DNA from: Chlamydiota bacterium
GTDB taxonomy: Bacteria; Auribacterota; Tritonobacteria; UBA1439
DNA: 13,884 bases
Assembly: GCA_037133055.1 (NCBI GenBank)
Contig: JBAXOY010000085.1
Span: 1-13,884, forward strand
Direction of reading: 5' to 3'
The position numbers and the translations under genes were made by a program. Below, piece after piece: positions 3 through 13,613 of the stretch. The notes beneath the pieces were generated by a model. The model was given only the letters and a program-made list of their open reading frames with translations, was not told the origin of the DNA and searched no databases. Position 1 is the stretch's first letter, and every line of letters begins with the position of its first letter.

Positions 3-1157
3 GTCGCCCACGTCGGGCCGCCGCCCTCGTCAAAGAGGACAACCTTCCCTCCGGCCAACACGGACAAGATCGCCGAGTACATCGCCGAGTGCGCCCGGAT
101 GGAAATCAAGATACTCCCGCCCGACGTCAACGAAAGCTTCGCGCGGTTTACCGTCGTGGGCGACGCGATCCGCTTCGGCCTCGCCGCGGTGAAGAACGTC
201 GGCGGCGGGGCGGTGGACTCGATCATCGCCGCCCGGCAGAAGGGCGGAAGGTTCACGAGCATCTACGACTTCGGCTGCCGCGTGGATTCGCGGCTCGTCA
301 ACAAGAAGGTCTTCGAGAGCCTCGTCTGCGGCGGCGCCTTCGACAGCCTCGGCTTCAGGCGCGCCCAGCTCATGGCCTGCGTCGAGAGGGTCATCGACCG
401 GGCCGCGGAGGCCCAGCGCGACCGGAGGCACGGCCAGGGGTCGTTCTTCGATGTCCTGGAAAACAACGGCGGCGGGAGCGCGTCCGGCGAGGCGATGCCC
501 GACATCCCGGAGTGGCCCGAGAACCAGCTCCTCGCGCAGGAGAAGGCGCTCCTCGGATTCTACGTGAGCGGCCACCCGCTCGCCCGTTTCGGGGGGGAGA
601 TCAGGAAGTTCGCCACCGCGAGCACCGCGACCCTCGCGGGTTTGAAAGATGGGACGACGGTGAAGCTCGGCGGCATCATCGCGAAGGTCCGGATCACCTA
701 CACGCACAAGAAGAACGAGAAGATGGCGGTGGCGGTGCTCGAGGACCTCGAGGGGACGGTGGAGGTCCTGCTCTATCCGCGGGTCTACGAGAAGGCGGCC
801 CCCCACATCGTGGAGGAGACTGCGCTCCTCGTCACCGGGCGGGTGGAGATCGAGGGGGAAAATCCGAAGGTCATCGCCTCCGAGGTCATGCCGCTCAAGG
901 AGGCGCAGCAGCGGTGCACCGCCGCGATGTACGTGACGGTCTACCTGTCCGATATCGAGCACGGGAAGCTGGACGGGCTGAAGAAGCTTCTTGAGTCGTC
1001 CCCCGGCCAGTGCCCCGTCTTCCTCGATTTCGCCTCCCCGACGGGGGAGCGGGTGCTCATGAAAGCGGGGAAGCAGTTCCGGGTTGCCCCCTCGCCCGAG
1101 CTGGTGCAGAGCGTCGAGGTGATGCTGGGCGAGTCGAGCGTGAGGCTCACTGCATGA
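3..1157 (+). CDS. dnaE: DNA polymerase III subunit alpha, 3' part (5'-partial)
   Basis: Frame is open from position 3. DnaE motifs: NTDKIAEYIAEC..M.I.ILPPDVNES, IRFGLAAVKNVG, GAFDS, QGSFF clamp-binding-like motif, EKALLGFYVSGHPL, an OB-fold segment (KMAVAVLEDLEGTVEV) and the C-terminal domain. The first ~18 codons do not look like DnaE. Confidence 0.96.
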   Translation, partial: VAHVGPPPSSKRTTFPPANTDKIAEYIAECARMEIKILPPDVNESFARFTVVGDAIRFGLAAVKNVGGGAVDSIIAARQKGGRFTSIYDFGCRVDSRLVNKKVFESLVCGGAFDSLGFRRAQLMACVERVIDRAAEAQRDRRHGQGSFFDVLENNGGGSASGEAMPDIPEWPENQLLAQEKALLGFYVSGHPLARFGGEIRKFATASTATLAGLKDGTTVKLGGIIAKVRITYTHKKNEKMAVAVLEDLEGTVEVLLYPRVYEKAAPHIVEETALLVTGRVEIEGENPKVIASEVMPLKEAQQRCTAAMYVTVYLSDIEHGKLDGLKKLLESSPGQCPVFLDFASPTGERVLMKAGKQFRVAPSPELVQSVEVMLGESSVRLTA

Positions 1158-1267: not shown

Positions 1268-1912
1268 GTGGCACTGAGCCAGGGGTTTTACGATCGCGCC
1301 TACACGGTCTTCTGGAAGATCTACCGGGGCCTCTTCAAGGCGCTCTTCCGCTGGCAGATCACGGGGCTCGAGCATGTCCCCCGTAAGGGCGGGGCCATCC
1401 TCGCGGTAAACCACTCGAGCCTGCTCGACCCGCCGCTCGGCGGCGTCGGCCTCCCGCGCAAGATCTGGTTCCTCGGGCGATCGAGCCTCATCAAAAACAG
1501 GTTCGTGGGCTTTATCATGAAATGCCAGCATATGATCCCGATCACGCGCGGGGAGGCGGACCTCGGGGCGATGAAGAGGATCATCGCCCTCATCAAATCG
1601 GGGGAGATCGTCCTGATGTTTCCCGAGGGGACCCGGAGCGCGGACGGCTCGCTCGGCCCAGGGAAGGAGGGGATCGGGGTGTTCGTCACCCACGCGAAGG
1701 CGGACGTGATCCCGTGCTATATTTCCGGGGCGGGGCGCGCCATGCCCAAGGGGGCGGTGCTCCCGAGGCCGCGGAAGATCCTGATCGCCTACGGGCCGCT
1801 GATCCGGCATGAGGAGTTCAAGGACTGCCCGAAGGGCAGGGCGGGGTTCAGGATGATCAGCGAGAAGATCATGGGGCGCATCGCCGAACTGAAGAAGCAG
1901 TTGGAAGGATAA
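1268..1912 (+). CDS. plsC: 1-acyl-sn-glycerol-3-phosphate (lysophospholipid) acyltransferase
   Basis: NHSSLLDP (HX4D) motif, FPEGTRS motif and VIPCYI segment; GTG start; 214 aa. Confidence 0.92.
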   Translation: MALSQGFYDRAYTVFWKIYRGLFKALFRWQITGLEHVPRKGGAILAVNHSSLLDPPLGGVGLPRKIWFLGRSSLIKNRFVGFIMKCQHMIPITRGEADLGAMKRIIALIKSGEIVLMFPEGTRSADGSLGPGKEGIGVFVTHAKADVIPCYISGAGRAMPKGAVLPRPRKILIAYGPLIRHEEFKDCPKGRAGFRMISEKIMGRIAELKKQLEG

Positions 1913-1914
1913 GG

Positions 1915-2054
1915 AAAGACTTTGGACGCGGATCGCCGCGGATGAACGCGGATTACGGCTTGAACAACTGTTTGTCACCACGGAGAACACGGAGGACACG
2001 GAGAAAAGACTTGGATGCGGATCGCCGCGGATAAACGCGGATTACGGCTTGAAC
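1915..2054 (+). repeat. Two ~50-bp direct repeats (10-bp periodic CGCGGAT) separated by 3x 9-bp CACGGAG(A/G)A
   Basis: Copy 1 (1915-1965) and copy 2 (2005-2054) differ at 3 positions. The 9-mers lie at 1979-2005. Confidence 0.9.
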
Positions 2055-2072
2055 CGCTTGAACAAAAGTTTC

Positions 2073-4256
2073 TCACCCCAGTTGTTTCAGTATGTTCGCG
2101 GCGATCTGAGGCCCGATCGCCGGCACCGTAGCGAGTTTCTTCTCGGACGCCTTCCGCACCATCTCCAGGGTCTTGTATCCCTCCCGGAACAGGTTGCGCG
2201 CGCGCACCCGCCCGATTCCCTTGAGGCTCACGAGCTCGAGCAGCTCATCCCTGATTCCGTACAGGACGCGCTGCCGAAGATCCCGGAGCGCCGGCTGGAC
2301 CCCGGCGATCTGGAGGACCGAGGCGAGCCGGCCCGCGGAATAGATCAGCCAGTCGGCGCTGTCGACGAATCTCCGCACGTCGCCCGGGCCGACCCCGTAA
2401 CGCTCGCAGATATTCTCTTCCCGCTCCTCAGAGATCCATTCCCCCAGCATGTTCGCGGTGCGCATCGACTTCAGGAACCGCTCGTGCTCCGCCTGGCCCC
2501 CCTCCCGCGGGGGCGGGATGAGGAACTTGCTCCCCTCGACGTACGCCTCCTCCTCGAGCTCCGCGTACGCCGCCTTGGTCAGGCCGAGGAGCGGCATGTC
2601 GGGGCAGCAGCAGGCGAGGTGGAGCAGCGCCTCGGTGGAGGGGGAACCGGCGGCGGAGAGCCCGCGTTTCAGCATGAGCCCCGAGCGCGGGTCGAGATAG
2701 AGCCGCGAGACGACCGAACCGAAGCCGGTGGCGTGCAATTCTTCGGCGGGCAAGAGCCGGAACCCCGGGGTGCCGCATCCCCGGCACAGTATCAGCCCCT
2801 CCTCGAGGAGGAAGCCGAGGATCCGCTCCGCCTCTATCGAGAGCGTCCGGACGTCCTCCTGCATCGCGAAGAAGGTGAGCGCGAGGAAATCCATGATTCC
2901 GGACATGGAGGTCGCGTAGCCCGCGGCGATCGAGGCGAGTATGTGGGAGGGGAGCGCGCCGCCCTCCCCGAGGCGGGACCGGAGCGGCTCGGTGGCGGCG
3001 CGGATGTAGTGCTCGAAAAGCATGTCCCGGTCGCCCTCCTTCTTGGCGATAAGGATCGCCTCTCCCTCCTTGTCGTAGCCGGGGCGCCCGGCCCTCCCCG
3101 CGAACTGCTTGTACTCGAAGACCGGGATCGGGCGCTGGCCGACCCCCGCCTCGTACCGCCCCCAGTCCCGGATCACGACCCTCCGGGCGGGGAGGTTCAC
3201 GCCCGCGGCGAGCGTCGGGGTCGCGCAGATCGCCTTGATGAGGCCGCCGCGGAACGCCCCCTCGACGAGGTGCCGCTGCTCCGGGTGCAGGCCCGCGTGG
3301 TGGAACGCGATCCCGCACCGGATCGTCTCCGCGAGCTCGCCGCAGAGGCGGGTCGGCTCCTGAAGCACGGTCCCGGCGGAATGGGCGATGTCCTTCAGCG
3401 CCGCGCGCGCCTTCGGGGAGAGCCGCCCCTTCAGGTGCGGGGCGAGCGCCCGCGCCGCCGCCTGCGTGGAGCGCCGCGAGTTGACGAAGACGAGCGCCTG
3501 TCCCCCCGCGTCCACGGTGTCGGTGACGAGCGACTGGGCCGGGTTAGCCTTCGCGGCGACGAGCGAGCGGGTGGTGTAGTCCGCGTAGTAGATGGTGTCC
3601 CCCGCGTAGACCCCCTCGAGGAGCGGGACGGGCCGCCAGTCGCTCGAGACGAGCGCCGCGTCGAGCCACGAGGCGAGCTCGCGGGCGTTCCGGACGGTGG
3701 CGCTCAGGGCGAGGATCTGGAGCTTCGGGTTCACCTGTCGCAGGCGGGCGATGACGAACTCGAGCGTGGGCCCGCGGCCGGGATCGTGGATGTAGTGGAC
3801 CTCGTCCATCACGGCCACCGTGAGCGATTCGCCGAGCCATGGCGCGCGCATGCGCAGCAGCGAATCCACCTTCTCCGAGGTGGCGACGAGAATCTGATAT
3901 TTCGAGAGGCGCGCGCCGGGGGAGTCGTATTCGCCGGTCGCCACGCCGACCGAGATCCCGAGCGGCGAGTATTTCTTCTTGAACTCCTCGTACTTCTCGG
4001 CGGCGAGCGCGCGCAGGGGGACGACGTAGAGGCATCGCCCGCCCTGTTCGAGGATGCTTTTCACCATGCATATTTCGGCGACGAGCGTTTTCCCCGCGGC
4101 GGTAGGCACCGCCATGAGTAGATTTATTCCTTCGAGGACGCCCGACCGGATCGCCTCGGCCTGGGGCGGATAGAGGGATGTATAGCCCGCGGTGAGGAGG
4201 CTCTCCACGAGGGGGCGCGGCACTTTGTGCGTGGACTCAAGTTCTGCGATCTTCAT
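2073..4256 (-). CDS. hel308: Hel308/Hjm (Ski2-like) superfamily 2 DNA helicase, archaeal type
   Basis: LYPPQ Q-motif, PTAAGKT, PLRALA, TSEK.DSLLR, DEVH, RGPTLE, LSAT, WRPVPL, FHHAGL, TPTLAAGVNLPA, QFAGRAGRP, C-terminal GIGRVRAR and HhH motifs. Start moved to ATG 4256 (MKIAEL..., 727 aa), which resembles archaeal Hel308 N-termini. Confidence 0.92.
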   Translation of the reverse strand: MKIAELESTHKVPRPLVESLLTAGYTSLYPPQAEAIRSGVLEGINLLMAVPTAAGKTLVAEICMVKSILEQGGRCLYVVPLRALAAEKYEEFKKKYSPLGISVGVATGEYDSPGARLSKYQILVATSEKVDSLLRMRAPWLGESLTVAVMDEVHYIHDPGRGPTLEFVIARLRQVNPKLQILALSATVRNARELASWLDAALVSSDWRPVPLLEGVYAGDTIYYADYTTRSLVAAKANPAQSLVTDTVDAGGQALVFVNSRRSTQAAARALAPHLKGRLSPKARAALKDIAHSAGTVLQEPTRLCGELAETIRCGIAFHHAGLHPEQRHLVEGAFRGGLIKAICATPTLAAGVNLPARRVVIRDWGRYEAGVGQRPIPVFEYKQFAGRAGRPGYDKEGEAILIAKKEGDRDMLFEHYIRAATEPLRSRLGEGGALPSHILASIAAGYATSMSGIMDFLALTFFAMQEDVRTLSIEAERILGFLLEEGLILCRGCGTPGFRLLPAEELHATGFGSVVSRLYLDPRSGLMLKRGLSAAGSPSTEALLHLACCCPDMPLLGLTKAAYAELEEEAYVEGSKFLIPPPREGGQAEHERFLKSMRTANMLGEWISEEREENICERYGVGPGDVRRFVDSADWLIYSAGRLASVLQIAGVQPALRDLRQRVLYGIRDELLELVSLKGIGRVRARNLFREGYKTLEMVRKASEKKLATVPAIGPQIAANILKQLG

Positions 4257-4635
4257 GTGCGGTATGCCTATGTCGCGCGGGCGTCCCGGGCGGAGTCGTC
4301 GGTCGATAGGATGCGCCATGCTATCACATGCCGCCGGATTTTGGGGTTTGGGATTTGTCCCGCGGGGGAGGACCCGCGCCGTTTCACGCTCCCGACCCCC
4401 CGTGAAAGAGGGCACGCGTACGCGCGCTCTTCGCCCGTGGATATCCTCCGACCTCGTGGAGAATGCTCCGTTACGGCGCGGCGCGGTGCCACCAAATAGC
4501 GCAGTGGGGGCGCATTTTAAAGACGTGCGCGGAGTGGAAAAATTCATGGCCCGGATCATAGCTCCTAATCCCATCGCAATGAATATGATAAGACTTCGAA
4601 TCAGGCGGGTGCAAATCTTCCGATGCACTTCCATC

Positions 4636-4651
4636 TGGCATGATGTATGCT
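4636..4651 (+). promoter_or_regulatory. Putative sigma54 (-24/-12) promoter
   Basis: TGGCATGATGTATGCT has GG-N10-GC spacing and lies ~110 bp upstream of the GTG at 4759. Confidence 0.55.
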
Positions 4652-4758
4652 TATTACCTAACTATTCAGGGATGTGTACGGGTGAGTTTGCGTATAACGG
4701 CTGAACACACATACCTGCGGGGGGAGCTCAAGCCCCCTCATCCAAAGGAGGGAACACC

Positions 4759-5115
4759 GTGAAGAGGATTGCCGTGGCGGTTCTGGCGGTCGCGGTCCTC
4801 GCGATGGCGGTATCGGGCGCGTGGGCCGGGGACAAGGTCAAGGTTAAGAGCGAGTATTACACCCCGTACGGGAAGGTCAAGGTGAAGGAGTACTATTACC
4901 CCGGTGCGTATCCGTATTACGGGTATCAGCCCGCGTATAATCCCTACTATTATAATCCGGGGTACAACGCCCCGCCTCCCGCCTATTACCCGCCCAATTG
5001 CCCGTACAACCAGGTTCCGTACTACAACCAGTCCCCGTACGGGAATCAGGCCCCGTACGGGAACCAGGCCCCGTACGGGTACGGAGTGCCCTACAAGGTC
5101 AAGATAGACGACTGA
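4759..5115 (+). CDS. Secreted Pro/Tyr-rich low-complexity hypothetical protein
   Basis: RBS AAGGAGG and GTG start. Signal peptide MKRIAVAVLAVAVLAMAVSGAWA, repeated KVKVK.EYY.P units and NQxPY(Y/G) repeats. Confidence 0.85.
   Translation: MKRIAVAVLAVAVLAMAVSGAWAGDKVKVKSEYYTPYGKVKVKEYYYPGAYPYYGYQPAYNPYYYNPGYNAPPPAYYPPNCPYNQVPYYNQSPYGNQAPYGNQAPYGYGVPYKVKIDD
5008..5079 (+). repeat. 4 x 18-bp in-frame tandem repeat (NQVPYY NQSPYG NQAPYG NQAPYG)
   Basis: Units start at 5008, 5026, 5044 and 5062. Confidence 0.85.
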
Positions 5116-5173: not shown

Positions 5174-5680
5174 TCAGGTCAGGCGGCTGAACACGAGAAT
5201 GAAGTCCGCGAGCCCGCGGATGTCCCCGGGGGAGAAACAGGGAACGCGGAATCCCGATCCCTTCCCGCCAACCGCGGCGATGACATCGCGGGCGCGCGGC
5301 GCGCGCGAGGCGGGGCGCGTGACGATCACCTTCGGGAGTCCGGCGCCCTTCCACCCCTCGACGAGGACGATGTTCGCGCCGGGGAAAAATGCCGCCGCAG
5401 CGCGCCCGGGTGAAAAACCGCGCGGGGCGTCCGCGACGAGACCGATCGAGCGGGGCGAGACGAGAAGCACCGTCCCGGCGCCCGCCTTCCTGAAGCGGTC
5501 GCTGTCCTTCCCCTCGATGTCGAGCGTGAAGTCGCGGCGGCTGTGCTTGACCGCGCCCACGCGCAGTCCCCGTCGGGAGAGTTCGGCGATGAGTTTCACC
5601 AGGAGGGCGGTCTTGCCCGAGCCCGATGCCCCGATGAAGGAGATCATCGCAGGGCCCTCGGCGCGGCGCTTATCCTTCAT
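5174..5680 (-). CDS. mobB: Molybdopterin-guanine dinucleotide biosynthesis protein B
   Basis: ISFIGASGSGKT P-loop, VGAVKH, D.EGKDS.RF..AGA and VLVEGWK. Confidence 0.9.
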   Translation of the reverse strand: MKDKRRAEGPAMISFIGASGSGKTALLVKLIAELSRRGLRVGAVKHSRRDFTLDIEGKDSDRFRKAGAGTVLLVSPRSIGLVADAPRGFSPGRAAAAFFPGANIVLVEGWKGAGLPKVIVTRPASRAPRARDVIAAVGGKGSGFRVPCFSPGDIRGLADFILVFSRLT

Positions 5681-5684
5681 AGAG

Positions 5685-5868
5685 GTAACTACTCAGGTAG
5701 TCAGAAGCCAGGAGCCAGAATCCAGAATGGGTCGCGGATACGCTTCCCGCAGCGTACTGAATCCAGCCCGGAATCATCGCCATACCCCAAGTTCGCAACT
5801 ATCGCCGACGGCGTCCTCACTACAACTCCTGGCTTCTGACTTCTGAATTCTGGCTCCTGAGTAGTTAC
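5685..5868. mobile_element. 184-bp non-autonomous MITE with IS66-like GTAA ends and 8-bp target-site duplication
   Basis: Perfect 13-bp TIR GTAACTACTCAGG (5685-5697) / CCTGAGTAGTTAC (5856-5868). TCATAGAG is directly repeated at 5677-5684 and 5869-5876. Internal 16-bp IR at 5699-5714 / 5826-5841. Confidence 0.85.
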
Positions 5869-6254
5869 TCATAGAGCTCACCGGAAGGATCCCTGGAGCA
5901 GCCGCCCGCTCCGCCTTCATCCCCGATATCTTCGGGGCTCTCCCCCGACTCCATGCGGTCGACCATCTCGTTCAGGTCCCCGGGCATATCCTCGCCCAGC
6001 TCGCCGCCCATCTTTTTCATCCAGCGCGCGATGGACTTAGGGTCGTTCTCGTCGATCCCGGAGAGCGCCGACGGGTCGGCGAGTTTCTCGATGCGGGATT
6101 CGTCGCTCCGTCCGACCCGGAACGCCGAGATGGCGCGCGCCATCCCCGCCTTCCCGCACTTCGGGCATTTCGGCGCCCTGTGGGAGGCGGTGTTCCGCAC
6201 CAGGAAACTGAAAATCTTCCTGCAGCGCGCGCAGGCGTACTCGTATATCGGCAT
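5865..6254 (-). CDS. FmdB-family zinc-ribbon protein
   Basis: MPIYEYAC..C...F...V.......P.CP.CG start, typical of the FmdB/CxxC_CxxC_SSSS family, followed by DENDPKSIARWMKKMG and an acidic tail. Start reassigned to ATG 6254 (129 aa). Confidence 0.9.
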   Translation of the reverse strand: MPIYEYACARCRKIFSFLVRNTASHRAPKCPKCGKAGMARAISAFRVGRSDESRIEKLADPSALSGIDENDPKSIARWMKKMGGELGEDMPGDLNEMVDRMESGESPEDIGDEGGAGGCSRDPSGELYE

Positions 6255-6269: not shown

Positions 6270-6394
6270 CATCGGCCGGGGCTCATCCATCCCGGCGGCC
6301 CCGGCGCCCGGCGCACTATCCCACACCCGACGGCCCGGCACCCGGCACAAATTCCCGGGTAAGGGGACACTCTTTGGGGGTGCAACTCCTGTTT

Positions 6395-6444
6395 TGTCAT
6401 CCCGGCCCATGCTTTCGCAGGGGTAAACTGTAGCCGGGATCCAG
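6395..6444 (+). repeat. REP-like palindrome (GTCAT...GGATCCA type) with enlarged loop
   Basis: TGTCATCCCGGC-N26-GCCGGGATCCAG. Confidence 0.6.
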
Positions 6445-6783
6445 CTTTGAAGTAGCCCGCAGATGAACGCAGATCGTCAGGATAGACAGGATACAAAAGG
6501 GGGACACAAGCGGCGGGATACCCACATCGGACGCGGATTTCGCAGATGAACGCAGATAAAGAAACCGCACATGATCTTCAAGAATGAATGAAACGCGGAG
6601 CTTTCTTCACGTTCCCCTTTTCCCCTTGAACCTTCATCCCTGAACCGTTGTGGTATCTGCGTGCTCTGCGTTCATCTGCGTCCCGAATGCCGTTTCCCTT
6701 TATGCCTTCACGCCATGGTCTTATCCGCGTCCATCCTGACGATCTGCGTTCATCTGCGTCCTGACGTTGAAGCGTGTAACGCC

Positions 6784-6809
6784 GGATTCCCGCTTTCGCG
6801 GGAATGACA
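6784..6809 (-). repeat. REP-like palindrome TGTCATTCCCGCGAAAGCGGGAATCC
   Basis: ATTCCCGC-TTTC-GCGGGAAT stem with a GTCA end; oriented opposite to the 6395 element. Confidence 0.75.
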
Positions 6810-9189: not shown

Positions 9190-9382
9190 GGCATAGGTTC
9201 ACCCCGGCACACCCGGCACAATTTCGCTCCTCTCGGTGCTCCCCTGATGCGCATATATCGATTCAAACGCCAATTTGAATTTGATATGTTAGATGCGATA
9301 TGGATGGCTATACTATATATTTGGAGACAATATAAACCATAGTTGGAATGGAAAAACGCTGACACAAAAGGAGGAACTACCT

Positions 9383-10024
9383 ATGAATTCCATGAAACAA
9401 CATATCCCCCCAGAATGTTTTAATGAATCCGCCGTTGCTATATATATTATTACCCCTGACCATAAAGTGATTTTCTGGAATAAAGCATGTGAAGTATTGA
9501 CAGGTATAACTTCACCTGAAATATTGAATACTACAAATCATTGGCAGCCATTTTATAAAGAACATCGCCCATGCCTCGTTGATATAGTAATTGATGGAAC
9601 GTATTCTTATTTACCTGAATTGTACGTAAAATATGGAAAATCAAAGCTCTCTCCCGAAGGGATAAACGCGGAGAGATGGTATGAAAGATTAGGAGGCAAA
9701 AAACGTTACATGATTTTTGACGCCGTCCCGGTATTCAACTCCTCAGGGGAGCTATTGGCTGCCATTGAAACTCTTCATGACCAGACCGAATCAAAGCACA
9801 TTGATCGTGAGAAAGAAAATATAATTTCCGAACTCAACAGTACTATTTCGAAGAATACTTCACTAAAAGGTTTTGTTAGTGTGTGCGCATATTGCAAGGA
9901 CATACGAAACAAAGATGGTGTCTGGATGGCCCTTGAAAAATACTTTAAGGATAAAAGCGATCTGCAATTTAGTCACGGTATTTGTCCAAAATGCACGCAG
10001 AAGCTTTTTCCTGTTTTTTATTGA
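9383..10024 (+). CDS. PAS-domain protein with C-terminal CxxC...HGICxxC metal-binding-like domain
   Basis: RBS AAGGAGG before ATG 9383. PAS motifs (VIFWNKACEVLTG, FDAVPVFNSSGELLAAIETLHD). C-terminus LKGFVSVCAYCKDIR...W...E.YF......FSHGICPKC. Visibly AT-rich. Confidence 0.88.
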   Translation: MNSMKQHIPPECFNESAVAIYIITPDHKVIFWNKACEVLTGITSPEILNTTNHWQPFYKEHRPCLVDIVIDGTYSYLPELYVKYGKSKLSPEGINAERWYERLGGKKRYMIFDAVPVFNSSGELLAAIETLHDQTESKHIDREKENIISELNSTISKNTSLKGFVSVCAYCKDIRNKDGVWMALEKYFKDKSDLQFSHGICPKCTQKLFPVFY

Positions 10025-10248
10025 TACAACGGGATTAAAATGTCATTCAAGCAAATGGTTCAAAGCGGACGTGGCAGCAAGAATAGAGTCCGTGCCCTAC
10101 GTTCATTCTCTGGAAACGTTATTGTGTGAGTCTCTGCTGTATGGAAATACGGTGGTAGCGCAGGTTACCGTACGTTTATCGGAACGCAGGGTCCGAAGAG
10201 CGGGCGAATCGGACTCTGCGACTCGCAGAGAGAAAGGAGGGAGCCGGC

Positions 10249-11391: not shown

Positions 11392-11422
11392 AGGGGGGAT
11401 ATACATCCCCCCTTCTTTATTG
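11392..11422 (+). terminator. Rho-independent terminator
   Basis: AGGGGGGAT-ATAC-ATCCCCCCT stem followed by TCTTTATT, between convergent genes. Confidence 0.7.
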
Positions 11423-13480
11423 AAGATAGCGCGATTGATCCGGGGCTGTCGGTGCATGCGAGGAGCCTGTCCGAGTAATGGGCGCCGGCGCGCCTCCCGT
11501 GTCGATCCGGACAAAGCTGATGCAGCCGGGATGCACCGCGCAGGCGAGCGGCGCCTTCTCTCCTCCGGGCAGGCTCACCTGAATGCGCACCGTGCCCTCG
11601 ATCTCCTTTCCCTGCGAAGGACCCGCCGTGCCGGCCGCCTTCCCCCATCCGAAGGATCTCCCCGCCCCGCGTACCAGCGGCACGGGGTTCAGCAGTTGTG
11701 TCCGCTCCCGAAGTCCGGTCATCATATCGAGACTCTCGGGGTTCCCACCACGCTCAAACAGCCGGTTTATCCCGGGGATCACCCTGGTAATATCAAGCAA
11801 GCGCGCGCGCTCCCTCACTCCTTCACGGAAGCCGAATTCCTTGAAGTACCCTATCCAGACAATCGTCCCGTTCTCGCTGTTATAATAGCGTCCCGTGACC
11901 GTGACATTGTCCGATTGCCCCATCCTGTATGCGCTGAGCCTGTCCATCTTTGCGCCCGGGTCGGCGAATGATAGTTCGATCATAAACTGTGTGAGCGTGC
12001 CGGTATCCCGCGCCAGGTCGCGCGTAATCGCCTTCCAATCGCGCGCGATAAAATTCAGGATGTACGGGTACGCGGGATTCCCCTTGACCATATACGCCGC
12101 GCCGTACTTCCTCCCTCCGAGCCCCCATACCCTCTTCTCTGGAAAGTGCATGACTTTGAGCGGCACCACCACGCGCTTCGGCAATGTCCGGCGCTCCACC
12201 TCTTCAAGGCGCGGGTGACCGCCGCCGGCATCTTGTACCCTCACACGCGTGTAGGAGTGCCCGCTGAGGTGCGCGGATGGCTGATCCACGATCCCGTCGT
12301 CGGCCACGCCGTTTGCGCCCACGATGAAGATCGTCTGTAACGGCGGGAAGGCTTAGCCTTGCTCCGCGTATTCACGGGCGAGCGTTTCGATTCTCTCCAG
12401 CTGCTGGGTTGTTCCCACCTCGTTCTGCTGAATCTGGTGGTATTCCCTTCCGACGATAAAGCGCCTCACGAACGGCATCCACTTCATGAGATTTATGGCG
12501 TCGTTCGCATCCGGTGAGCCGAACAGAGAGGCGGCGGTCGCGATGAAATACGGCTCCACGTCCAGCAGGTCGCGGTACTGCGCGTAGGTGATGTAGAACT
12601 GCTTCTCCTTCTCTTTCTCCGCTTTCGACATTACTATGCGCGAGGCTGCATACTCCCGCAATTTCTCGTACCGTTTCGGATAGTACAGGCTTTCGATCCC
12701 CTCGAATTTCTTCATGCCCGGGTACCCGCTCGACGGGTCGACGAGGTACCGCAGGAGCTTGTCCATCTGCGTGTCGAGTTCCTTCTCCATGCGCTCATAG
12801 AAGCGCTTGATCGGAGGGCTTGTTTTGAAAGGCTCCTCGTTTTCCACCCTGATGGTCTTTAGTGCAATGAAGTTATCGAGGGCGTTTATCCAATCCTGGA
12901 ACTCCGGATCCTTCTGGAGCGCGCCCCACTCGGCGCCGAACTCCTTCACTCTGGCTTCATACTCTTTCTTGAAGTCGATAAAAATGCGTCTCGATATCTG
13001 TCTCATGACGACGCCGCCCTGACTGAAACCGATAAGGACTAGCCTTTTTACCGGGGGGGCGCCATGCGCGGTGCGCCGGTCATTTTCGGCCTCGAGCTCG
13101 CGGACGATCGCAGGGCCGACGCGTGTCGATGCGATTGAGAGTTCGGGGGAATAGAGCGCGGCCTTCATGGAAACCGGGTCTTCCGGGGTGTCATAGGTAA
13201 TGATGCGGCAGGGAATCCCTTCGGCGGCGAGCATCTCCACCAGGCGGCCGAAATGCTGCTGCTGGGTAATGCGTACGCCCGAGAGGGCCAACCCGGGGAT
13301 GGCGAGAACGAGCGGAGCATCAGGCGCTGGCTGCGCGGGATAGATGCCATCCTGCGGCGGCATCTTCTGAAGATCGATGGTCGTACATCCCGCGAAAAAG
13401 GCAAAACACACGACCATGCACGCGCGCAGCATCTCGCGTGGTGCAGGCGCCATCAATCTTTCGGGAGATCCGTGTGCCAT
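11417..13480 (-). pseudogene. Alpha/beta-hydrolase (lipase-like) lipoprotein gene interrupted by an in-frame TAA at 12353-12355
   Basis: ORFs 12353..13495 and 11417..12322 are in the same frame, joined by the open codons AFPPLQTIFI. Lipobox FAGC, IPGL and GFSQGG lie in part 1; DDGIV and a candidate His (MHFP) lie in part 2. Start uncertain (13480, 13453 or 13432). Confidence 0.75.
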
Positions 13481-13613
13481 AGAGAAACAGTCCAACGAAT
13501 ATAATGCCGCAATTGTTACTCGTTGGCCTCACGGATGCGGATTGAGCGGTGCGCCGCCCGACCGTTTATGCCGGGGTGAGAGACATAACTTCAGCGCCAC
13601 GCTGCACACAGCG

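Follow-up and report, generated by a model that had tools for sequence, protein, structure and literature searches.

We analysed a stretch of 13,884 nucleotides (the window) comprising positions 1 to 13,884 of contig JBAXOY010000085.1 in assembly GCA_037133055.1, which is labelled a Chlamydiota bacterium and placed by GTDB in Auribacterota (Tritonobacteria; UBA1439). Its minus strand carries, at 2073..4256, a gene for Hel308, a DNA helicase described as archaeal and metazoan. The gene is intact, retains its key residues, is under purifying selection and is present throughout the host family, whose genomes lack UvrD/PcrA, Rep and RecD2 but contain UvrB, UvrC, MutL, RecG, RuvB and PriA. We give an even chance to the wider reading that Hel308 is here a repair helicase that unwinds forks and D-loops, that it reached the family from archaea and then by way of bacteria, and that its presence is likely to have relaxed the need for UvrD. 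The link to UvrD, taken by itself, seems possible, with the balance tilting towards doubt.

The hel308 gene, its protein and its locus

Translation of 2073..4256 gave 727 codons and a stop codon without an internal stop. The open reading frame (ORF) continues 5′ of the ATG at 4256, up to 4634; because the alignments of homologues begin at residues 1-3, the ATG at 4256 is likely to be the start of hel308. The initial annotation, made from the letters of the window, had named a full-length Hel308 with RGPTLE, WRPVPL and a C-terminal region with RAR and helix-hairpin-helix (HhH) motifs, and the intact protein carries each of them where it had placed them. The features of the gene are as follows.

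2073..4256, minus strand: hel308, 727 aa, with RecA1, RecA2, winged-helix, ratchet and HhH domains (profiles, PDB matches, model)
4083..4106, minus strand: Walker A, residues 51-58; K56 is invariant in 82 aligned sequences
3795..3806, minus strand: Walker B DEVH, residues 151-154 (translation, alignment)
3759..3776, minus strand: RGPTLE, residues 161-166 (translation, alignment)
3621..3638, minus strand: WRPVPL, residues 207-212 (translation, alignment)
3288..3305, minus strand: motif IVa FHHAGL, residues 318-323 (alignment: 7/7, 20/20 and 16/16 rows)
3123..3170, minus strand: predicted RecA2 beta-hairpin, residues ~363-378 (model strands 366-369 and 373-376; alignment), which we take to be the strand separator, a role known from the A. 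fulgidus structure
3081..3107, minus strand: motif VI, residues 384-392, with the arginine finger (alignment)
2316..2387, minus strand: domain 4 ratchet helix, residues 624-647 (PDB alignment, model; PMC2636818)
2196..2204, minus strand: RAR motif in the HhH domain 5, residues 685-687 (translation, alignment; PMC4671958)

The superfamily 2 motifs Q, I, Ia, Ib, II (DExH), III, IV, V and VI were intact in two RecA domains, and domains 3 (winged helix), 4 (helical ratchet) and 5 (HhH) were present in the same chain of ~700-750 aa (Pfam, model and fold search). Within the ratchet, R629 and W636 pair in the alignment with R592 and W599 of A. fulgidus, and motif IVa is the switch between unwinding and annealing in archaeal Hel308 (PMC10484726). 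PRK02362 matched residues 1-727 with 845.8 bits (its cut-off of 887 was not reached) and the Hel308 profile NF040935 matched over the full length with 546.5 bits (cut-off 1200, not reached); these NCBIfam cut-offs were apparently tuned to particular archaeal lineages. Above their Pfam cut-offs were PF21280 (archaeal helicase domain 4), PF20470 (HTH_61) and PF14520 (HHH_5), and the Pfam scan also found DEAD and Helicase_C. Hjm/Hel308 entries in the PDB matched at E 5e-147 to 1.5e-127, and an AlphaFold model made with 82 aligned sequences (pLDDT 93.6) gave template-modelling (TM) scores of 0.87-0.89 to Hjm/Hel308 structures, with 0.89 to Pyrococcus Hjm. A promoter and terminator scan of 1850-4800 found nothing, and a search for RNA runs with the gene listed none.

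The protein has the length and five-domain fold of archaeal Hel308/Hjm (P. furiosus 2zj2/2zj8, A. fulgidus 2p6r, S. solfataricus 2va8; COG1204, PRK02362) and shares with it all helicase motifs, motif IVa (F/Y)HHAGL, the ratchet Arg/Trp pair and RAR; its identity to Hadarchaeota proteins is 51-56%. It differs in its bacterial host and in scoring under the curated NCBIfam cut-offs, and the family rows of the alignment have an insertion of ~10 residues in the wing of the winged helix and Phe in place of Met in motif VI. Furthermore, PfuHjm has a PCNA-binding box (PMC2636818), whereas the protein of the window ends directly after the last HhH helix and therefore has no tail for one; no clamp-binding tail was seen at the C-termini in the alignment. 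Metazoan HELQ and the Pol theta helicase domain belong to the same fold family (TM 0.77-0.80) and contain the RAR motif (PMC4671958), but their identity is 27-28% and their N-terminal extension or polymerase fusion is absent from the family Hel308. ASH-Ski2 is defined by a four-cysteine extension at its N-terminus and by the lack of domain 5 (PMC10946056), the reverse of the protein of the window on both counts. Bacterial Ski2-like helicases of the HelY type have the Ski2-like core in common with Hel308 (~30% identity, core only) but carry DSHCT, which is present in the proteins of L009 and L012 and absent from Hel308, in place of the ratchet and HhH. Such HelY-type (DSHCT) helicases were seen in loci L009-L014, from five other families of the phylum.

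The host family consists of uncultured freshwater bacteria. Close homologues are labelled Ca. Aureabacteria/Auribacterota, one member of the cluster is labelled Chlamydiota, and the genome containing the window is 92% complete with 0.7% contamination and has a transfer-messenger RNA. On the same contig are bacterial dnaE, plsC and mobB, and the bacterial host that the initial annotation had read from dnaE was borne out by the profile match. The neighbours that bear on the locus are:

3..1157, plus strand: 3′ part of bacterial dnaE (PRK06826, E 1e-90), a host marker only
1268..1912, plus strand: plsC-like acyltransferase (profiles, Pfam), which is context and outside the proposed mechanism
1916..2060, no strand assigned: intergenic repeat between the convergent plsC and hel308 (133 blastn hits in 52 contigs of the genome)

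That an archaeal fragment was misassembled or misbinned into a bacterial metagenome-assembled genome (MAG) has a negligible probability. Misbinning does occur, as three Hel308 matches from gut 'bacterial' MAGs group with Methanomethylophilaceae, and among the Logan contigs none bridges plsC and hel308 and none spans the whole stretch from dnaE to hel308. Short-read contigs break at the intergenic repeat. The synteny already refutes an artefact: plsC and hel308 lie tail to tail in 8/8 independently assembled family genomes, with dnaE upstream of plsC in seven of these loci (the eighth contig stops before it). The dnaE, plsC and hel308 pieces had similar read depth and no alternative letters in four runs from four studies, and the tetranucleotide correlation of the contig was 0.98 (rank 97 of 191). 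Chimerism, for which the initial annotation had proposed a coverage check, was thus ruled out by gene order, tetranucleotide composition and read depth. Gene-less intergenic repeats were also seen at ~5620-5870 and 6320-6790; all three repeats had high read depth drawn from other contigs.

The composition of hel308 matches that of its neighbours, as had been noted before: its GC is 68.7%, its GC at third codon positions is 0.91 (0.93 in dnaE) and its codon-bias distance lies at the 40th percentile among 376 genes of similar length in the genome. Identities within the family are 62-82% for hel308 and 66-83% for the dnaE fragment, and the two track each other; hel308 is under purifying selection (dN/dS ~0.2-0.3, similar to dnaE and uvrB). 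One copy, in genome G005, has an in-frame TAG, which suggests a consensus error because the dnaE of the same genome has one too. The gene is old in the family, and both a chimera and a recent arrival were dismissed because of its presence beside plsC in all eight genomes and its housekeeping-like codon use and divergence. The dnaE neighbourhood emphasized in the initial annotation is real as adjacency, but it is only an insertion site: hel308 lies on the opposite strand and the neighbours in Omnitrophota differ. A functional link to dnaE or recO through adjacency was rejected on the same grounds, strand and neighbours that differ per lineage.

Distribution and origin of bacterial Hel308

Full-length Hel308 was found in 8/8 genomes of the host family (4 genera) and in 0/71 other genomes of the phylum (E≤1e-60); the class is represented by one further genome, in which UvrD but no Hel308 was found. 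A direct search detected Hel308 in 60 of 401 Omnitrophota genomes (15%), and one UvrB clade of this phylum had it in 48 of the 51 genomes sampled. The Omnitrophota gene resembles that of the family in belonging to the same clade, in being single-copy and vertical, and in its insertion on the strand opposite to a housekeeping cluster. It differs in phylum, in identity (44-55%), in UvrD, which is often kept, and in site (mostly between dtd/tatD and recO/ybeY, or behind a MATE gene). Most matches in the contig and protein searches came from archaea, Hadarchaeota being the closest, and Omnitrophota were also among them.

An archaeal Hel308 served as the root of the IQ-TREE trees, which had no outgroup from outside Hel308; their sets were hand-chosen subsets of 360 rows, many of which have no taxon label. 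In all five trees the main Omnitrophota group and the family came together in one clade beside Hadarchaeota. FastTree supported the bacterial clade at 99 and 0.993 (322 and 360 rows); IQ-TREE C20 with 78 rows joined the family and Omnitrophota at 97 SH-aLRT, and these with Hadarchaeota at 100; the 34-row IQ-TREE gave 99/96 for the bacterial clade and 100/99 for its union with Hadarchaeota; and a further IQ-TREE gave 96 for the bacterial clade. We therefore hold it highly probable that there is one bacterial clade beside Hadarchaeota. The phylogeny for which the initial annotation had called does group the protein among archaeal Hel308. It also revealed what that annotation had set against its own proposal, a vertically inherited bacterial clade, here shared with Omnitrophota; the archaeal origin stands because this clade is itself placed within archaeal Hel308, next to Hadarchaeota. 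Within Omnitrophota Hel308 is vertically inherited, as its tree and the UvrB tree of 53 genomes gave a Mantel r of 0.91, with 20 strong splits in common and 0 conflicting.

Because the family and Omnitrophota form one clade beside Hadarchaeota, the likely history is a single archaea-to-bacteria transfer followed by a later transfer between the two bacterial phyla. The gene would have passed from a Hadarchaeota-related archaeon into one bacterial lineage and subsequently between Omnitrophota and the host family. The direction from Omnitrophota to the family is mildly favoured; the 34-row tree nests the family within Omnitrophota (95/87), and on the other side Omnitrophota monophyly excluding the family was not rejected by the approximately unbiased (AU) test (p-AU 0.114). 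This means that the old, ameliorated archaea-to-bacteria transfer originally suggested holds for age and archaeal ancestry, while the immediate donor was more probably another bacterium.

A direct and separate transfer from Hadarchaeota to the family, with the grouping with Omnitrophota being an artefact or the trace of two transfers out of a single archaeal donor group that is extinct or unsampled, is improbable. Hadarchaeales proteins lead the matches from outside the family (56% identity) and Omnitrophota follow (44-55%), the stem branch of the family is long (0.41-0.57), the unlabelled sequence P0072 moves between the two clades, and a clade of the family and Hadarchaeota excluding Omnitrophota is only marginally rejected (p-AU 0.047). 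Against this stand the bacterial clade in five of five trees and, in the rows shown, a Cys-rich stretch before the PDM motif that the family and Omnitrophota have in common and Hadarchaeota lack.

In addition to this shared clade, there are signs of two further separate entries of Hel308 into bacteria, since two sets of sequences lie on other branches. Two Omnitrophota genomes (G284, G309; L182:3913-6039, L184:915-3059) have a Hel308 of another branch, with 40-41% identity, in a bacterial-looking context. The P0140 cluster contains 31 sequences, four of them with Bipolaricaulota/Acetothermia labels, and would be a third branch (L207:6001-8187, L210:6001-8181); its Hel308 adjoins genes for an ABC transporter and ornithine carbamoyltransferase, and its putative host is taken from the labels. 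The gut hits mentioned above (L035, L037, L038; L139, L140, L141) were rejected as further transfers, being likely misbinned methanogen contigs; one of the three was scanned and had archaeal LonB above cut-off.

Hel308 and the absence of UvrD/PcrA

The initial annotation had proposed an unusual fork-repair route and had looked to recG, recQ and ruvAB, but the survey showed no gap there for Hel308: RecG, RuvB and PriA were each present in 5/5 family genomes and RecQ in 3/5, so that Hel308 fills no fork-remodelling gap, and replacement of any of the four by Hel308 was rejected. The missing gene is UvrD/PcrA, to which that annotation had not pointed and which was found (TIGR01073, E<1e-100) in 0/8 family genomes versus 63/71 others of the phylum (among the 63, that of G082 is an EndoQ-type fusion). 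The sole UvrD-fold protein of the genome containing the window is a RecB/AddA-like helicase; RecD2 was found in 0/8 family genomes, and no Rep was found. Other repair proteins are retained, with UvrB and MutL in 5/5 and UvrC in 7/8 family genomes, and RecO in the genome of the window. The TGE motif of UvrB that binds PcrA was discarded as evidence, as it is degenerate both in the family and in genomes with canonical PcrA (13 rows).

PcrA/UvrD functions in nucleotide excision repair, mismatch repair and removal of RecA; B. subtilis cannot survive its loss, nor can E. coli if rep is lost as well, unless RecFOR has been inactivated (PMC8318588, PMC4466434). Hel308 shares the 3′-5′ polarity of UvrD, opens D-loops and holds down recombination in Haloferax (PMC10484726), and stalled forks of E. 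coli are engaged by archaeal Hel308/Hjm (PMC2636818, PMC7437997). By analogy, the family protein would use ATP to translocate 3′-5′, would remove D-loops and the lagging arm of stalled forks, and would have domain 5 as a brake; that it works in this manner is very probable. Since the family is without UvrD, Hel308 may cover part of UvrD's job. Its activity would overlap the anti-recombination and repair work of UvrD/PcrA and make UvrD dispensable, aided by the loss of RecF; judged from gene content, sufficiency of this overlap for UvrD loss is a tentative proposal. In the weakest step of the scheme, Hel308 would also take over the post-incision step of UvrABC repair, which we consider doubtful. 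UvrD/PcrA/Rep helicases (superfamily 1A) are likewise 3′-5′ and have repair and anti-recombination roles, although they belong to another superfamily and fold, and their overlap with Hel308 is inferred only. The superfamily 1A domains PF00580 and PF13361 were not matched by Hel308 in profile and Pfam scans.

The Omnitrophota allowed the two genes to be compared in a second phylum. UvrD was detected at E≤1e-100 in 26/60 Hel308-positive versus 299/341 Hel308-negative genomes (the first search took two candidates per genome, and 76 negatives were searched anew in full). No match even at 1e-25 was found in 14/60 versus 11/341, and all 14 of these Hel308-positive genomes retain uvrB. Thirty-four of the 60 are without a housekeeping-type UvrD when EndoQ-linked paralogues are discounted (20 paralogues, 16 typed on a tree and 4 by length), and the lack is clade-wide, covering subclades of 15, 11 and 3 Hel308-bearing genomes. 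The Fisher p of 5e-13 for the counts at E≤1e-100 ignores kinship and is unusable. As a gauge of assembly drop-out, uvrB was missing in 8 of 142 genomes searched.

In many Hel308-bearing genomes the only UvrD is a paralogue tied to a TIGR00375 (EndoQ-like) gene; elsewhere such a UvrD coexists with the housekeeping one. TIGR00375 (EndoQ-like, below cut-off) directly precedes or is fused to this separate paralogue, which is often shortened to ~500 aa and forms its own clade. The pairs occur in many Omnitrophota and one Auribacterota genome (L188:2870-5714, L189, L190, L191, L195, L196, L358, L365, L366, L372).

The alternative is that Hel308 is an accessory, RecQ-like helicase for forks and cross-links beside RecG, RuvAB and PriA, with the same gene history, and that UvrD was lost for other reasons, such as RecF loss, a life as small slow-growing anaerobic cells, or completion of excision repair by Mfd and polymerase I. 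We regard this as a serious possibility, with the scales leaning slightly against it. Hjm complements recQ in E. coli (PMC2636818), and RecQ is missing in 2/5 family genomes. Several further observations speak for it and, at the same time, against a role of Hel308 in the loss of UvrD. At most 26/60 Hel308-bearing Omnitrophota retain a stand-alone UvrD (4 typed on a tree), so that both genes have coexisted for long and strict mutual exclusion is ruled out. Family f6 of the host phylum (G012, G021, G029, G037, G082 and G083, 87-96% complete; L198, L372) is without both housekeeping UvrD and Hel308; UvrB was present in 4/4 tested, RecF is present and no RecD2 was found, so such bacteria can manage without both helicases. 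No UvrD match was obtained in G034, G066 and G038 either (94, 81 and 77% complete). An independent-pairs test was not significant (5 pairs, p = 1) and had no power; its sample held all 14 UvrD-lacking Hel308-negative genomes, and of the remaining 327 only 68 had been included in the uvrB search. In the host phylum, Hel308 gain and UvrD loss coincide as a single event on a single branch. The typing of EndoQ-linked UvrD covers Hel308-positive genomes only, and all genomes are incomplete MAGs.

The biochemistry adds to these objections. Hel308 is without the Tudor C-terminal or 2B domain that UvrD uses to bind UvrB, RNA polymerase and MutL, and no additional tail was visible. According to PMC13623763, HELQ is poor at removing RAD51 filaments and RecA does not stimulate it, so stripping of RecA is no evident skill of Hel308. 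Finally, recF loss rescues the lethality of B. subtilis pcrA (PMC4466434), and RecF was above cut-off in 0/8 family genomes, a loss that could itself ease the loss of UvrD; recO is kept in the loci seen. RecF was likewise not above cut-off in 54/79 genomes of the host phylum, most Auribacterota families being negative, and in 79/80 Omnitrophota searched. For RecF loss as the cause of UvrD loss the Omnitrophota are uninformative, with 1 of these 80 having RecF and the 20 negatives chosen because they have UvrD.

What counts against a purely accessory Hel308 is that UvrD lack is 4-7 times commoner with Hel308 (34/60 versus 42/341 at 1e-100 and 14/60 versus 11/341 at 1e-25) and takes in whole subclades, whereas outside the Hel308-bearing Omnitrophota its rate is near that of uvrB drop-out. 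Furthermore, in the host phylum 46/46 RecF-negative genomes outside the family have a UvrD match (tables crossed by hand), and RecF loss as the sole cause of UvrD loss is thus not supported. The stronger version of a UvrD link, that Hel308 displaced UvrD/PcrA more than once (in the Auribacterota family and in several Omnitrophota subclades) and works with UvrABC, MutSL and RecA, is unlikely.

Other parts of the window and meaning of the finding

Away from hel308, a plus-strand ORF of 118 aa at 4759-5115 has a signal-peptide-like start and short repeats rich in Tyr, Pro, Gly and Asn, with no Pfam or NCBIfam match. The region 9250-10050, with a PAS-domain gene, has a GC of 37-39% versus 61-68% around it and looks recently acquired. 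Two minus-strand ORFs of 301 and 380 aa (11417-12322 and 12353-13495) have no Pfam or NCBIfam match; the 380-aa product is lipoprotein-like, with a GxSxG hydrolase motif seen by eye.

Lasting cross-domain transfers of DNA-repair motors are uncommon, and hel308 is here stably carried in the chromosome by an entire bacterial family and by 15% of the sampled Omnitrophota. Our literature search, which covered papers outside subscription, found no paper on bacterial Hel308. An older paper calls Hjm unique to archaea (PMC2636818), and the available parts of a 2024 family survey (PMC10946056) and a 2026 review (PMC13623763) name no bacterial Hel308. The protein is thus a known enzyme in a new domain, beyond the range given in the searchable papers. 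Also new is that the family keeps UvrB, UvrC and MutL and lacks UvrD/PcrA, and that whole Hel308-bearing subclades of Omnitrophota lack UvrD too.

If the link to UvrD is false, the finding is a well-supported yet ordinary old gene transfer. If it is true, a Ski2-like helicase would be able to perform the work of UvrD without the domains through which UvrD binds its partners, and the cellular role of Hel308 could be probed by simple complementation. Should displacement also prove true, it would be a cross-domain and cross-superfamily swap at the core of DNA repair, and it would offer a bacterial genetic handle on Hel308/HELQ.

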